Source: a virus. Taken from it: a stretch of 64,000 nt of DNA. The notes beneath the pieces are model-generated. The model worked only from the letters and a program-made list of their open reading frames with translations, made no database searches and was not told the origin of the DNA. The stretch's first letter is position 1. The number at the start of each line of letters is the position of its first letter. Below, one piece after another: positions 20,753 through 63,030 of the stretch. Location: the IMG/VR virus record IMGVR_UViG_3300029913_000009, positions 34,290-98,289 of that record; one strand, written 5' to 3'. The translations under genes were made by a program, and so were the position numbers.

Positions 20753-20805
20753 CTTAGTATACCGAACTCGTAGGTTTTTTGGCTACTTTTTTCGGAATAA
20801 TTTTT
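20753..20805 (-). promoter_or_regulatory. phage promoter copy (TAGCCAAAAAAC-N7-TTCGGTATACTA)
   Basis: Conserved motif. The ATG lies 5 nt downstream, so the mRNA is leaderless. Confidence 0.6.
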
Positions 20806-21436
20806 CCATGGCAGTCACATTCACATGCCAAGCTAGTGCATGAAGTGTGGATGTTTCTCTGGCAATTCCCAGACATCCAGCCAGACGGGTGGTTCAGTTT
20901 GTATTTCATGGGCCTTACACCGGGCCTTGTCGGCCCATGAAAACCAAGCGACCGGGCGGCTTTCGCAAGACTCCTGCTTACAAAGCTCCTCATTGCCGCA
21001 TACCGTACATCTGCATGTGCGATGTCAGCATCAGATAATTTTCCTTTCGACAAAATGTTGGAGAAGACGGCCACCATCGGTACCGGCAGCGTCCAGCCAA
21101 TCCCATAGTTCACTGGCTTCGCGACGGTTCAAAGAGTGCAGAAATTCCTGCACCTTGGCTGGAATGTTCTTGGCGAGTTCGAGACGCTGACTAAAGGAAT
21201 TTGGCATGTTATTCTCCAATGATGGCTGTGAGTATTCGATACGACTCATCGTCCTCAGCCCTAACGATGGCTCTGGCTAACGCTTTCAGTTCCTCAGGAG
21301 GTAGATTATCGGTGCCCCCGTACTCTTCCAGCATGGATAGTAAACTCCCGGCCACATTGTGGACACAGACTTGAGGGAAAGGGAAGTTAACCATGTTCCG
21401 AATCATCTTGTCTCAACTTAAAGGTGTTAAGCAACC

Positions 21437-21883
21437 TCATTGCAACGGCACCAGTTCTCCACGTTGAATACGAGCCAGAGCGGAGTTGTAGGGCAGTGGA
21501 GTCGGTGCCCATTCCATGCGACGGCGAGCCTGTTCCCACATCTCGGTAGCGAAGTGTGGTCCGAGGTCGGCACGTACCAGCACGAAGGTTTTCAGCGGCA
21601 TGTTGTCAGGGTTGTAGTACAGGCCGATAGGCGGGATACGCCACCACCAAGAGGCAACTGGGGAGTACCATGTGTTCGCCGGGTCTTCAAACACTTTGAT
21701 ACCAAACCGGCGTCCATCGGTATACATGTACTCGACCTCGACATTGGCCGGAGGTGGGGCGTCGAACCAGTTTGTCCATCCTGCGAACCACCAGTGCCCC
21801 GCCGGAACTAGGTCACGGACAGAGATTTCATACTTCAGTTCAGCCTCAAGACGGTCTTCGTGTGTTTCATAGAACCGACCCAT
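21437..21883 (-). CDS. Trp-rich hypothetical protein (148 aa)
   Basis: ORF track entry. Confidence 0.45.
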   Translation of the reverse strand: MGRFYETHEDRLEAELKYEISVRDLVPAGHWWFAGWTNWFDAPPPANVEVEYMYTDGRRFGIKVFEDPANTWYSPVASWWWRIPPIGLYYNPDNMPLKTFVLVRADLGPHFATEMWEQARRRMEWAPTPLPYNSALARIQRGELVPLQ

Positions 21884-21899
21884 AATCCTGTGTCCTTTC

Positions 21900-22148
21900 C
21901 TAGCTAACGTAAGCGACGATTTCGTAGTTACCGGAGGGCATCTTGTACCAAGTCATGCTCAGCCAAGTCTTCTCACCAACCGGCTCATTGCTGCGACCTT
22001 CGCGACCGCAGAAGATGGCGGGTTCCATTCCGTTGAAACCTGCGGCGGTCAGGATGCTGTCGATGTCTTCAATGGGGATGAACGGGTGGTAGGTCGGCAT
22101 TGCAGCTAACCTCTCGTTTGCGACTTTCCGGGCTTTCAACTCGTTCAT
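21900..22148 (-). CDS. hypothetical protein (82 aa)
   Basis: Promoter copy at 22165-22220 followed by a GGAGGA Shine-Dalgarno site and the ATG. Confidence 0.5.
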   Translation of the reverse strand: MNELKARKVANERLAAMPTYHPFIPIEDIDSILTAAGFNGMEPAIFCGREGRSNEPVGEKTWLSMTWYKMPSGNYEIVAYVS

Positions 22149-60289: not shown

Positions 60290-60359
60290 TGTGTTCCTTT
60301 CATAAGAATGGGAGTGCCGGTTAGCACTCCCATTCGTTATTGGTCACGATGTGTTAAGA

Positions 60360-62915
60360 CTACTTCGCTGATGCGGTCTTCGCCCGGTCCTTGAGATTGC
60401 TCAAGATGGGCTCAAGTGCAGACCCCTTGAACAAGCGCCCAAGTACCAAGTCGGTGCTTGTCTGCTCCATGACGGCCAGCGGAGCAATCGCGACGGTGAG
60501 GCGGTTGAGAACCTCGTTGTCGCCCAAGGTCTGAATGGCCTGAATCAAGTTCGGGGTGACTGCGGCCAGCTTCTTCTCGAAGAGACCTACCCGTTCCTTC
60601 TCCATCGACAACTCAAACTCGGACAGCATCTTGGTGCGTTCGAACTCAGCATCTGCAACGGCGGTCTTCTGCGACTGTTCTGCCACTAGTGCTTCCAGCC
60701 GTGCCATCTGTGCTGCAACCTCGGCTTCGATTTCAACCATATCGGCTTCAGCCTCGGCCTTGGTGACTTCCTTCGCCAGTGCCTGCTTGTAGACGGTCAC
60801 CTTGGTTTCCAGTTCTGCAATCTCCCGGTTAATCTCCGTCTTGCGACGGGTATTGATGAGAGTCTGCTCATCTGAAGCCAACGTGATTGCGCTCTCGACG
60901 GCCTTCACTTCCGCGTTGGTCAGCAAGTCCTTGATACGTGTCTCCACGATTTCAGGACGGCTGAGAACTTCAACGTCATACACATCCATGCCGTTCTCGG
61001 TGAAGAGACGGTGACGGGATTCATCACCTTCCTTCTTGCCCAGCACAACATCGCGGATGAGAGTCGCGGAGTTCTCCATGACATCCTTTACGCCATGCTT
61101 CTTGAGTGCAGCCTTCAGCAAGGAGCGCATGTGGTCGCACAGGTACTTGACGTAGTTCTCGACGGCGAACCACTTATCCTCGTGGGTACGCAGGAAGTTC
61201 AAGCGATACTGAACCTTCAGGTCAACGTTGACCATGTCCTTTGTTTCCACGCGGACAATGTCGCTCACAATGCTGTTGTCAATCCGCAGGTACACATCAT
61301 GGCACAGGTCGTCGGTGGTCTTCGGCTTGCCGGTCGAAAGAGAGAACATCTCCAACGTCTCGTCATACTTCAACAAGATGGTGGCCGGTCCGACAACAAC
61401 GCGGCGGTTACCGCTCTTGTCCACAACCTGCACCGCATACCCAGTCCAAATGCTGATGGAAGGTACGCCATCGTACTTGGAACCGAGGGTAATGGAGGGA
61501 GGAGGTGTGAAGTTCATCCCACGTGATACACGGTCCCCACCATAGCCAGAGGCTACAGGCTCCGAGAACGCCTTGCTCTTTGTCAAACCACGGTTGACGC
61601 TGCGACCAATGTCAGCCGCTGCCGCCAGTACGGTGTTTTCCGCGAGGTAGCTTGAAGAGATGTCATCGTTCAGAGCGCGGAGGGACTGGTTGAATGCCAG
61701 AGCATCAACACTCTTCGGGAACCAGAGGTTGACAGTCTTGTCGTCCAACACACGACGAACGATGGTCTCGTTGCGAGGGTCTGGTAGGAAGATTTGCGGA
61801 CCTTCCACCAACTTAATCTTGCCTTCGCTCTTATCGAGCACGTAACGAGCTTCGCCGGTAGGAATCGTGATGCCGTAGTAGCGTTCCCGTTTGAAGTTGG
61901 TCTTTGGATCATCGTACCCGATGAGGACATGCTCCGCACGTGGGTAGTAGAACCGCTGTTCCTTGCCTGTGATGAACAACTCTTCACCAGCGAGAGCAAA
62001 GACGGCGAGGTTGCCAGTTTCGTCCTTCATCACACGATACTTCGACAGGTTGTGCTTGAACTCAGTGCCTTCCTCCGCACCTTCAGGCACTGCGATGGTA
62101 TTCCCGGTGTTGTAGTCCGCCGTGACCTTGACGTAAACGCCCATCTGGTCATTCAACTCGATGGCCTTCAGCTTCCGGGCGCTTTCCTTTTCAACGAACC
62201 GCTCAGTCGCTTCAGGGAATACAACCTGCGGCCCCATTTCAAACCGCTTGTTGCCGTCTTCGTCCAACAGGATGCAGTATTCCAAACGCTCCAATGTGAG
62301 AGCTTCACGCACGTAGGAGGGGTTCTGTCCAGAGTCCTGCAACACTTCAAAGCCGGTCGGCGGAATGAAGAATGAAGACTCGGTGCCCTTGATGACAAGC
62401 TGCTGGCCGGGAGTGAACGCGCCATCCAACCCAGCGGCCTTGGACTTCAGGGACTTTGTAGCATTCTTGCTGGCTTCGTCGGCATTGTACACGCGAACCA
62501 CGAGGTACTGGTTTGAGCGAAGGTGGTGACCCGGAATGACTTGAGCGAACTGCCCCGGCCACAATGGGAAGGTGATCGGCCCTGTGATATTGATCTTGCT
62601 GCCGATACGCAGGTCAGCGGGAGCGTTGCCGCCCTTGCCGGGTGCTTGCGGCTTGCCATCTTTGTCGAGGTTGGGGTTTTCGAGTACGAGGTACTCGCCT
62701 TCGCCTACGAACGGGTTCTGCTTCACAGCGGATTGTAGGGTGGTGCCCACATACATATCCGCATTCCGATCATAAGTTACTGGGCGTTCGTTTTGACTGA
62801 CAGCACCGCTGTGTGGACCGGCATAGACCTGCACAATGCCCTTGGTTGTGTCCTGAATCAGCGCGTGCTGATTTTGAGCAAGCACAAGTTGCGTCTGGCC
62901 TTGAATATCCGCCAT
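60360..62915 (-). CDS. major vault protein (MVP) homologue: N-terminal MVP repeats, SPFH-like shoulder, C-terminal Ala/Glu-rich coiled-coil (cap-helix-like)
   Basis: The N-terminus HALIQDTTKGIVQVYAGPHSGAVSQNERPV, then GEYLVLENP and FPLWPGQ, parallels eukaryotic MVP ([44 protein letters not shown]). The size of 851 aa is typical of MVP. The C-terminal EAEADMVEIEAEVAAQMARLEALVAEQ coiled coil is like the cap helix. Confidence 0.7.
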   Translation of the reverse strand: MADIQGQTQLVLAQNQHALIQDTTKGIVQVYAGPHSGAVSQNERPVTYDRNADMYVGTTLQSAVKQNPFVGEGEYLVLENPNLDKDGKPQAPGKGGNAPADLRIGSKINITGPITFPLWPGQFAQVIPGHHLRSNQYLVVRVYNADEASKNATKSLKSKAAGLDGAFTPGQQLVIKGTESSFFIPPTGFEVLQDSGQNPSYVREALTLERLEYCILLDEDGNKRFEMGPQVVFPEATERFVEKESARKLKAIELNDQMGVYVKVTADYNTGNTIAVPEGAEEGTEFKHNLSKYRVMKDETGNLAVFALAGEELFITGKEQRFYYPRAEHVLIGYDDPKTNFKRERYYGITIPTGEARYVLDKSEGKIKLVEGPQIFLPDPRNETIVRRVLDDKTVNLWFPKSVDALAFNQSLRALNDDISSSYLAENTVLAAAADIGRSVNRGLTKSKAFSEPVASGYGGDRVSRGMNFTPPPSITLGSKYDGVPSISIWTGYAVQVVDKSGNRRVVVGPATILLKYDETLEMFSLSTGKPKTTDDLCHDVYLRIDNSIVSDIVRVETKDMVNVDLKVQYRLNFLRTHEDKWFAVENYVKYLCDHMRSLLKAALKKHGVKDVMENSATLIRDVVLGKKEGDESRHRLFTENGMDVYDVEVLSRPEIVETRIKDLLTNAEVKAVESAITLASDEQTLINTRRKTEINREIAELETKVTVYKQALAKEVTKAEAEADMVEIEAEVAAQMARLEALVAEQSQKTAVADAEFERTKMLSEFELSMEKERVGLFEKKLAAVTPNLIQAIQTLGDNEVLNRLTVAIAPLAVMEQTSTDLVLGRLFKGSALEPILSNLKDRAKTASAK

Positions 62916-62944
62916 AGTTGTTCATCCCTTTCAAAAAGGCTCCG

Positions 62945-63030
62945 GAGAGCACTTTGTTTTGCGTGATACAACGTTACTACTTACTACGGGAAGTTGCAAG
63001 GGGTTTGGTTGGAAAATTTTTAGTAGACTA
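62945..63030 (-). promoter_or_regulatory. possible divergent promoter variant upstream of the MVP gene (CCAACCAAACC-N9-TTCCCGTAGTAAGTA, with upstream CTAAAAATTT)
   Basis: Partial match to the conserved promoter architecture. Confidence 0.3.

Follow-up and report, generated by a model that had tools for sequence, protein, structure and literature searches.

Introduction

Conserved phage promoters specific to one class of genes and leaderless phage transcripts are both well known, having been described in T4, SPO1, phiEco32 and the Thermus phages. In T4 middle promoters, a MotA box at -30 is combined with a sigma-70 -10 element, and SPO1 and phiEco32 encode sigma factors of their own, gp28 and gp36, respectively. 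T4 early promoters, comprising UP, -35, TGn and -10 elements, are read by RNA polymerase carrying unmodified host sigma-70 (PMC2988021). Leaderless genes with a TANNNT hexamer next to the start codon have been reported in bacteria (PMC3160421), in Deinococcus-Thermus (PMC12340547) and, in the Lalka27a preprint, in Thermus phages (10.64898/2026.04.20.719267). In the PeSL promoter-terminator composites, repeated early promoters flank variable cassettes (PMC2839356, PMC4122927). Here, a motif of some 55 nt that recurs on the minus strand of a 64,000-nt stretch of viral DNA (positions 34,290-98,289 of IMG/VR record IMGVR_UViG_3300029913_000009; hereafter, the window) is compared with these systems and is argued to be a phage promoter, about half the strong copies of which would direct leaderless transcription. 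All coordinates refer to the plus strand of the window, copies are named after the plus-strand position of the initial T in TATACT, and positions within the motif are counted from the inferred transcription start (+1).

A conserved motif on the minus strand of the non-structural block

When all TATACT sites in the window were extracted together with their flanks, 13 copies aligned without any gap across ~55 nt, giving the consensus AAAAATTT-N4-AAAAA-CTAGCCAAAAC-N9-yyCGG-TATACT-A. The AAAAATTT A/T tract lies at -54 to -47 and AAAAA at -42 to -38 (0.7-1.6 bits per position), followed by an 11-bp box, CTAGCCAAAAC, at -37 to -27, nine variable bases, yyCGG at -17 to -13, TATACT at -12 to -7 and A at -6. 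The TATACT hexamer is invariant in the 13 copies (1.6 bits per position) and is of the TAnnnT type of -10 element; TACTAT is found as a variant in the window, and TATTAT or TATAAT in relatives. The G at -14 is likewise invariant, and the spacing between box and hexamer is constant in all strong copies. Because the spacers between the conserved blocks vary in sequence, the copies are not simply homogenised repeats. The two A/T tracts have the composition and placement of an UP element (A/T-rich tracts at about -57 to -47 and -46 to -38), and binding of the polymerase alpha subunit to them is predicted; these are reportedly also the positions of the Escherichia coli UP subsites described by Estrem and colleagues in 1998.

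A position weight matrix (PWM) derived from the 13 ungapped copies was used to scan both strands at a threshold of 8 bits, a check that an earlier note on this DNA, made from the sequence alone, had proposed. The 13 copies scored 44-67 bits, as compared to 6 bits for the best site in shuffled sequence, and the sole further site above threshold on either strand was a decayed copy, 58163 (27 bits). With at most one mismatch allowed, CTAGCCAAAAC was matched seven times (1.1 expected) and CGGTATACTA 13 times (1.2 expected), every match being on the minus strand. A blind, independent repeat finder returned the same family (as D2-D4). No copy was found on the plus strand, the island of which had been described earlier as free of the motif, and none was found below 20.7 kb. 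The motif is restricted to the non-structural block at 20.7-59.6 kb, and is absent from the side carrying the DarB-like and terminase genes and from the 7 kb past the window. The copies point the same way as the genes and occupy the gaps between them, at most running into the final few codons of the preceding gene; copy 59564 alone is found within the upstream coding sequence.

The earlier note had listed at least 17 promoter copies. Thirteen of these sites are the canonical copies and two more are real but variant, with a one-nucleotide insertion in the box (Table 1); the remaining three are not members of the family. The site at 24240, in the leader of a CRISPR array, has a plain TATAAT with CTAGTT just 19 nt upstream, lacks the A/T tracts and scores below 8 bits. 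At 11284, listed as possible, GGTATACG stands alone next to a different, late-type motif, and at 62945, also listed as possible, an A/T tract and CCAACCAAAC are present, with a spacing that exceeds that of the family by 2 nt and with TAGTAA as the hexamer. Decayed copy 58163, by contrast, had been overlooked: its upstream block scores 28 bits and its -10 block 0.4 bits, and it lies 21 nt 5' of a 56-aa gene. Site 49702 had been overlooked too; its TATACT is 10 nt too near a box-like sequence and reads better as TTGCAA-18-TATACT.

Start codons at the predicted transcription start

In eight window copies, an ATG follows the hexamer after exactly 6 nt, opening an open reading frame (ORF) of 94-1018 aa. 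These are the eight genes that had been called leaderless earlier, and all eight calls are correct, as are those of five further genes as being led by a Shine-Dalgarno sequence (Table 1). Pipeline gene calls on identical contigs, compared for six of the eight leaderless genes, share the same ATG for the ORFs of 110, 137, 1018, 107 and 129 aa; the call for the 424-aa ORF is of 422 aa and begins two codons inside. Across the window and its relatives, 38 distinct instances of the motif were collected, 30 of them strong. The ATG is exactly at +1 in 16 of these 30 and displaced by +1 to +5 in none (binomial P ~1e-21), and the base at the predicted +1 is a purine in 28. A hexamer ending 6 nt before the AUG, with no Shine-Dalgarno sequence, was seen in eight window genes and nine in relatives, all with ATG, and in orthologs conservation of the coding type sets in at that ATG. 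In the five leadered copies, the predicted RNA start is 11-32 nt ahead of the ATG, and in three of them the predicted +1 is at, or at most 3 nt from, the first G of GGAGGA or GGGAGA.

Half of the copies are predicted to start transcription on the A of the ATG and so to yield leaderless mRNAs. Translation of the eight mRNAs without a leader must then be independent of a Shine-Dalgarno sequence and dependent on the AUG. We are confident that such leaderless translation would occur, which fits the prediction that 10-19% of genes in Acidobacteria are leaderless (PMC3160421). As in the leaderless genes with a TANNNT hexamer described elsewhere, the hexamer ends 6 nt before the ATG and genes led by a Shine-Dalgarno sequence coexist in the same genome. 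In those genes, however, the hexamer is usually the sole conserved element, whereas here it is part of a reused 50-bp promoter. Separately, TATTAT, 6 nt and the ATG of a 54-aa ORF are found at 44582-44599 on the minus strand, possibly a hexamer-only leaderless gene lacking the upstream elements of the family.

The motif in related metagenomic phages

Relatives were sought by scanning a viral collection for box plus hexamer, and the metagenomic viral contigs compared are given L-numbers. Contigs from several other samples carry the whole motif, including the A/T tracts, often in multiple copies. Two sets of orthologous leaderless copies (window 20761, L016:5360 and L017:8273; window 23339, L016:2505 and L017:10394) hold hexamer and ATG 6 nt apart even though the intervening bases have changed. 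Variants of the motif with TATTAT lie upstream of tRNA arrays in L011, L013 and L022, and in three genomes (the window, L010 and L011) a conserved RNA 5' end, (G)AGGCAACAG, falls on the predicted +1. The three tRNA arrays hold 6-14 tRNA genes, among which is a predicted tRNA-SeC(tca) in L022; L010 holds a tRNA-like sequence with a long insert that was not called by ARAGORN. L010 and L011 share another conserved 5' RNA (GAGGCAACAGCGCAGCCGGG...) behind the same promoter, in L011 some 600 nt upstream of the tRNA array.

Among 185,579 species genomes, a single one contained an exact 20-base version of the motif, on a 182-kb contig that is phage-like, that had been binned with a Terracidiphilus (Acidobacteriota) metagenome-assembled genome and that is related to one of the viral contigs. 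The sequence family matches nothing among cultured phages, a 59-nt promoter query against these giving no meaningful match.

Comparison with Tunturiibacter phage Tunturi_5

The gene for the large terminase, on the minus strand, begins at 558 and is cut off by the start of the window. Its best match by far is that of Tunturiibacter phage Tunturi_5 (44% identity, E = 2e-136), a jumbo myovirus of 309 kb whose isolation host belongs to the Acidobacteriota (PMC11924767), and synteny with Tunturi_5 gp346-gp350 extends over 0.9-14.3 kb. When 20 kb of the window was compared with cultured phages by Megablast, no match was returned, and no tRNA genes were found in the window. The phage is large and jumbo-related, its genome probably being jumbo, and from its relatedness to Tunturi_5 together with the Terracidiphilus binning we infer that its host is probably an acidobacterium.

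The whole genome of Tunturi_5 (PP885688.1; L032-L038) contains no copy of the window motif. It does contain a family, termed B, of ~34 copies in the same register, with an A/T tract, AAA, an 11-bp box at about -37 to -27, a 14-bp gap and TAnnnT at -12 to -7. The consensus, TTCATCTTTGG-N14-TAGGTT-GA, differs from that of the window in the box (TTCATCTTTGG rather than CTAGCCAAAAC), in the hexamer (TAGGTT rather than TATACT) and in the bases before the hexamer (TTTG rather than CGG), such that apart from geometry there is no likeness of sequence between the two families. An ATG is found 6 nt after the hexamer in 11 of the ~34 copies, and the others start at GAGG. Family B precedes a ligase gene, a CCA-enzyme block and a GmrSD-like operon, the window homologues of which lie behind the present motif. 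A second family, A (44 copies; ATAWTC-N19-GGGTATTA; eight leaderless), is found ahead of tRNAs and of genes for replication and nucleotide metabolism. Of the two annotated sigma genes of Tunturi_5, gp3 has family A directly before it and gp211 has it via gp212. The paper on Tunturi_5 mentions neither promoters nor sigma factors (PMC11924767).

Of the two sigma factors annotated in Tunturi_5, gp211 is a genuine ECF-type sigma (Pfam Sigma70_r2, 2e-11, plus r4_2), and the label of gp3 is structure-based only. The earlier note had suggested a search for a sigma factor or RNA polymerase gene. None is found in the window, but 3.5-4.9 kb beyond its start the present phage has a gene for a divergent sigma-like protein of 473 aa that is homologous to gp3 (37% identity over 265 aa, E = 2e-41); no finding here links this protein to the motif. 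The 473-aa protein itself gave no Pfam, PHROG or PDB-sequence match, and neither gp211 nor the annotated antiterminator gp25 had a significant match in the DNA searched of this phage. The sigma-like gene sits in the late block. A late-type motif (approximately yTWTAGnAGAGG, TAGGGG or ATAGAGA), picked out by eye and without statistics, precedes late genes and the plus-strand island by 10-45 nt, and a similar motif precedes the structural genes of Tunturi_5. The presence of this motif at 11283 explains the earlier listing of a copy at 11284.

Recognition of the motif

A promoter is the only reading that would explain the position of the motif, its orientation, its spacing kept under divergence and its use before non-coding genes. 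Because the motif combines a TAnnnT hexamer, an invariant G at -14, a predicted start 7 nt downstream and UP-like tracts, it points to a sigma-70-family holoenzyme with alpha subunits, and we are confident that the enzyme would be the host core polymerase with a sigma of that family. With moderate confidence, we propose that a protein encoded by the phage reads the box, and not host sigma-A acting in its usual way. Overall, we assign a probability of about 0.5 to the proposal that one temporal class of genes has the motif as its promoter, used by the host core with a sigma-70-family sigma, with the box read by a phage-encoded protein. On this proposal, host core RNA polymerase and the sigma factor would melt the TAnnnT hexamer and begin the RNA 7 nt downstream of it, with the A/T tracts bound by the alpha C-terminal domains. 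The box would be the phage-specific determinant, read by the region-4-like domain of a phage sigma or by an activator of the MotA kind, and host sigma-A would not read it in the ordinary -35 mode. RNA from those copies that do not start on an ATG would begin at or shortly before a Shine-Dalgarno sequence of the GGAGG type, or encode no protein. The class served would be that of the non-structural block, rich in small ORFs and in anti-defence and RNA-repair genes; the genes under the motif (restriction alleviation, RNA ligase, CCA enzyme, PARP-like and small ORFs) look early.

In three respects the box behaves unlike a host -35 element. Its weakest conservation (0.5 bit) falls on the position that would align with the critical G of TTGACA, the flanking non-consensus bases, like the AAAC behind them, hardly vary, conservation spanning 11 bp, and the spacing is invariant. 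More canonical matches do exist in the same genome (TTGACG-17-TAGAAT before a cas12-like gene and TTGACT-17-TAACGT before the sigma-like gene) and in a strain variant (TTGATA-17-TACTAT before a vault-like gene), but since generic matches number 21 in 20 kb where 13.8 are expected, these carry little weight. Most tellingly, the finding of the same geometry with another box and hexamer in Tunturi_5 is unexpected with one conserved host sigma-A and expected with phage-specified recognition. Like T4 middle promoters and those of phage sigma factors, the motif combines a normal-looking -10 with a phage-specific element replacing the host -35, and would use the host core. Unlike in those systems, no MotA, AsiA or sigma homologue is linked to it, the genes look early and the UP-like tracts are prominent. 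The earlier note had suggested a phage sigma factor or RNA polymerase from the tight conservation of the motif. That argument is insufficient alone, given that T4 early promoters are equally conserved, and its polymerase part is unlikely to hold; a phage specificity factor is still a serious possibility. Also in favour of such a factor are the sigma genes present in this lineage (two in Tunturi_5, one sigma-like gene in the present phage) and the confinement of the exact 20-base version to a single phage-like contig among the species genomes.

Several points weigh against recognition by a phage protein. TAGCCA, with an 18-bp spacer, matches TTGACA at four of six positions. No sigma, anti-sigma, polymerase or MotA/AsiA-like protein was recognised among the 105 window ORFs subjected to domain searches (Pfam, PHROG), and an RpoD-like probe found no match in any relative DNA examined. 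The sigma-like gene nearby pairs more naturally with the late-type motif, which, judging from its sequence in the two phages, may be the more natural target of the protein conserved in both. Tunturi_5 family B lies upstream of the operon holding the ECF sigma gene and this, together with the early look of the genes, suits an unmodified host polymerase. That a conserved phage promoter of 50 bp can be a pure target of host sigma-70 is seen from the T4 early class (PMC2988021). Finally, every transcription start considered here is a prediction from sequence.

The main rival reading, unlikely if by no means negligible, is that these are host promoters pure and simple, a T4-like early class of very strong promoters with UP, -35, extended -10 and -10 elements, used by unmodified host sigma-A as soon as infection begins, with TAGCCA as a sub-optimal -35 at an 18-bp spacing and the extra conserved bases tuning the contacts of the alpha C-terminal domain and of sigma. 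It accounts for the canonical -10, the invariant G at -14, the proper start distance, the A/T tracts at UP positions, the early-type gene content, the lack of a sigma or polymerase gene in the window and the absence of the motif from the terminase and late side, and a generic sigma-70 scan accepts TAGCCA-18-TATACT at nine of 12 positions. T4 offers the precedent. As in T4, many copies precede small, mostly unknown genes, conservation extends over ~50 bp and includes A/T tracts upstream of -35, hexamer spacing is fixed and no terminators separate successive copies. However, T4 has a -35 (GTTTAC) and a TGn that approach the consensus of its host, and the present box does not resemble TTGACA and has CGG in place of TGn; T4 early mRNAs have leaders, whereas half are leaderless here; and recognition by the host sigma has been shown for T4 only. 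The reading also leaves the poor conservation of the G-aligned box position and the fixed non-consensus bases to be explained, as well as the use by Tunturi_5, with probably the same host family, of another box and hexamer in the same geometry. To our knowledge, the host-dependent early promoters of well-studied phages have TTGACA near consensus. If the box is instead read by a phage protein, one might tentatively go further and suppose, at rather less than even odds, that related Acidobacteriota jumbo phages each carry orthogonal pairs of box and specificity factor on one rigid geometry that places the start on the AUG, a phage sigma or sigma-appropriating activator, injected or made first, reading the box. 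It is possible in the same tentative sense that the 'early' programme would then be specified by the phage, through CTAGCCAAAAC in the window and through families A and B in Tunturi_5.

Other explanations are less probable still. Host sigma-A could use the UP-like tracts and -10, with the box CTAGCCAAAAC serving as operator for a phage repressor that shuts the class off later. This would explain a phage-specific box over the -35 position alongside a canonical -10 and UP-like tracts, and large lytic phages generally need early shut-off. In T4, the mechanism of such shut-off is still unknown (PMC2988021). We nevertheless regard an operator as improbable, since the box is neither palindromic nor repeated, unlike most operators, no candidate DNA-binding repressor was recognised in the window and, without a -35 or TGn, the promoters would depend on the UP-like tracts and -10 alone. 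That the motif is not primarily a promoter at all, and is instead a recombination or mobile regulatory cassette, a terminator or an insertion site, is highly improbable. The syntenic relative L016 (1900-2520) lacks a 7-kb block of the window (23.4-30.4 kb) that comprises the variant promoter, a helicase-methyltransferase gene, a 108-aa ORF, the CRISPR array and the cas12-like gene; in the window, two promoter copies border this block, recalling the PeSL cassettes, in which repeated early promoters likewise flank variable cassettes (PMC2839356, PMC4122927). Unlike PeSL, the motif has no associated stem-loop terminator, and the alignment did not place the breakpoints inside it. A strong hairpin was found in the 75 nt upstream of only two of 16 copies, on which ground a PeSL-type promoter-terminator composite was rejected, terminator-like matches are not enriched, and the copies show no inverted repeats, terminal repeats or target duplications. 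The terminator or insertion-site alternative named in the earlier note fails on these grounds, and the fixed distance to start codons would be left unexplained. The least probable of the readings weighed is the promoter of a phage-encoded RNA polymerase, be it single-subunit, as in T7 and N4, or multisubunit, as in phiKZ and AR9. Tight conservation and a large, probably jumbo, genome that is mostly outside the window would allow for one, but the motif is bipartite, ~50 bp long and has variable spacers, UP-like tracts and TAnnnT 7 nt from the start, whereas the phage-polymerase promoters known to us, of the T7, N4, phiKZ and AR9 types, are short contiguous motifs around the start site. Given this sigma-70-type anatomy, and since polymerase domains were neither found in the window nor annotated in Tunturi_5, such an enzyme is very unlikely.

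Two further identities for the motif were considered and rejected. A sigma-28/sigma-D promoter (TAAA-N15-GCCGATAA), suggested by a CCGATAT seen by eye in three copies, is at odds with the CGGTAT of most copies and with an unsuitable -35 spacing. For an archaeal BRE/TATA promoter, nothing TATA-like is found at -26, GGAGG Shine-Dalgarno sequences are present, and the tRNAs and terminase are of bacterial and phage types.

Individual copies

The copies and the other sites of the window are listed in Table 1.

Table 1. Copies of the motif, predicted products and related sites in the window (spans of canonical copies cover -57 to +1; the last column gives the position listed in the earlier note)
Feature	Span or position	Strand	Hexamer	PWM score (bits)	Predicted start and product	Earlier position
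Late-type motif sites	window 7617, 11283, 11392, 12375; L029 13080, 16322, 17161, 18610
Canonical copy 20761, leaderless	20749-20806	-	TATACT 20761-20756	61.1	ATG 20749, 110 aa (MAKITV...)	20753
Canonical copy 22174	22162-22219	-	TATACT 22174-22169	51.4	14-nt leader with GGAGGA, ATG 22148, 82 aa	22165
Canonical copy 23339, leaderless	23327-23384	-	TATACT 23339-23334	58.6	ATG 23327, 137 aa	23331
Variant copy 30331, leaderless; box CTACAGCCAAAC (1-nt insertion)	30319-30377	-	TACTAT 30331-30326		ATG 30319, 1018-aa helicase-methyltransferase	30323
Canonical copy 34307, leaderless	34295-34352	-	TATACT 34307-34302	52.2	ATG 34295, 424-aa CCA-adding/poly(A) polymerase family enzyme (Pfam PolyA_pol 3e-35)	34296
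Canonical copy 35537, top score	35525-35582	-	TATACT 35537-35532	66.8	transcript would begin at GGAGGA; 11-nt leader, ATG 35514, 121 aa	35529
Canonical copy 39457, leaderless	39445-39502	-	TATACT 39457-39452	56.2	ATG 39445, 501-aa PARP-like protein	39448
Canonical copy 39837, leaderless	39825-39882	-	TATACT 39837-39832	61.8	ATG 39825, 94 aa	39828
Predicted 316-nt non-coding (or micro-ORF) RNA from copy 40212	39885-40200	-
Canonical copy 40212, ORF-less transcript	40200-40257	-	TATACT 40212-40207	56.2		40204
Canonical copy 40571	40559-40616	-	TATACT 40571-40566	54.2	20-nt leader with GGAGGA, ATG 40539, 96 aa	40563
Canonical copy 49119, weak A/T tract	49107-49164	-	TATACT 49119-49114	44.2		49111
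Canonical copy 56585, leaderless	56573-56630	-	TATACT 56585-56580	55.6	ATG 56573, 129 aa	56579
Canonical copy 57650	57638-57695	-	TATACT 57650-57645	52.3	32-nt leader with AAGGA, ATG 57606, 180 aa	57641
Decayed copy 58163; A/T tracts and box CTCACCAAAAC intact	58151-58208	-	TACGGC
Canonical copy 59057	59045-59102	-	TATACT 59057-59052	60.7	transcript would begin at GGGAGA; 11-nt leader, ATG 59034, 193 aa	59049
Degenerate variant 59564, leaderless; box CTACTGGAAAAC (1-nt insertion)	59552-59610	-	TATACT 59564-59559		ATG 59552, 107 aa	59556
Look-alike, not a member; AAAAATTTT + CCAACCAAAC, 16-nt spacer	62975-63024	-	TAGTAA	below threshold		62945

At copy 49119, there is an ATG at +1 with no ORF of at least 40 aa opening there; the next long gene begins at 49031, which would give a 76-nt leader with no clear Shine-Dalgarno sequence. 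Copy 40212 has no ORF of at least 44 aa within 100 nt. The predicted 316-nt RNA from this copy (fold z = -1.76) contains a long 5' hairpin of 68 nt and a start-stop mini-ORF, AAGGAGGGGTTATGTAA. It would terminate at a strong 13-bp G+C hairpin with a U run behind it (~39918-39890), a terminator hairpin also seen in the centroid structure and lying immediately upstream of copy 39837. No Rfam match was found for this RNA, the Rfam search of the window likewise being empty. Elsewhere, copy 59057 has orthologous copies in L016, L019 and L022, the 129-aa gene behind copy 56585 is followed by a DNA-ligase-like gene (55372-56265), and a GmrSD_N-like gene is found further downstream of copy 23339.

Neighbouring genes

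The products of the window genes include vault-protein-like and PARP-like proteins, a CCA-adding enzyme, an RNA ligase, a ligase-like protein, a ClpX-like ATPase, TnpB, a protein with a Lar-like restriction-alleviation domain and a GmrSD_N protein, together with those of many small ORFs. The major-vault-protein-like protein is encoded at 60360-62915 on the minus strand (MVP shoulder, 4e-23; Vault_3), and the PARP-like ADP-ribosyltransferase, with a PARP regulatory domain (Pfam PARP, 5e-21), at 37940-39445 on the same strand, behind a leaderless copy; both contain eukaryote-type domains that are unusual in a phage. Comparison of L027 1-840 with window 62916-63540 revealed a strain variant in which a 164-aa reverse-strand gene and TTGATA-17-TACTAT replace the weak look-alike upstream of the vault-like gene.

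A TnpB/Cas12f-like protein (OrfB_IS605 plus a zinc-ribbon TNB domain) is encoded at 40736-41944 on the minus strand, in the middle of the promoter-rich block. Its gene adjoins the homologue of Tunturi_5 gp213, which in Tunturi_5 is two genes from the ECF sigma gene gp211; no sigma gene is found beside the gp213 homologue in the window. Near the start of the window, two adjacent ORFs of 1325 and 911 aa (902-7617, minus strand) jointly match Tunturi_5 gp350, annotated as a DarB-like antirestriction protein, and in strain L031 the 1325-aa ORF is split into ORFs of 556 and 737 aa.

The CRISPR array, at 23440-24232 on the minus strand, comprises ~13 units with a 36-nt repeat, CCTGTAGACTTACTGGATTTGAAGGCTGAATCCAAC, that is degenerate at the distal end. 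Its TATAAT leader promoter is at 24250-24245, with a terminator hairpin upstream. The array lies directly downstream of a gene for an 856-aa protein (24323-26893, minus strand) that gave weak C-terminal Cas12 (RuvC/TNB) matches in PADLOC and no Pfam or PDB-sequence match, and the TTGACG-17-TAGAAT match of this cas12-like gene is its own, at 26984-26956. Judged from sequence, the 856-aa protein and the array are a candidate divergent, phage-borne type V system.

Significance

Should the motif indeed be a promoter, then some 15 transcription units would be mapped and eight start codons fixed to the nucleotide in an uncultivated large phage, and this phage lineage would depend heavily on leaderless translation beside Shine-Dalgarno initiation. 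Acidobacteriota are nearly without genetic tools, and a compact, strong and modular promoter would, if the reading is true, be a useful expression part. Tunturi_5 and its Tunturiibacter host are a cultivable pair, such that the parallel families found there offer both useful parts and a tractable system in which to study a non-canonical -35 box. If a phage factor reads the box, the motif would represent a new case of phage-directed promoter specificity.

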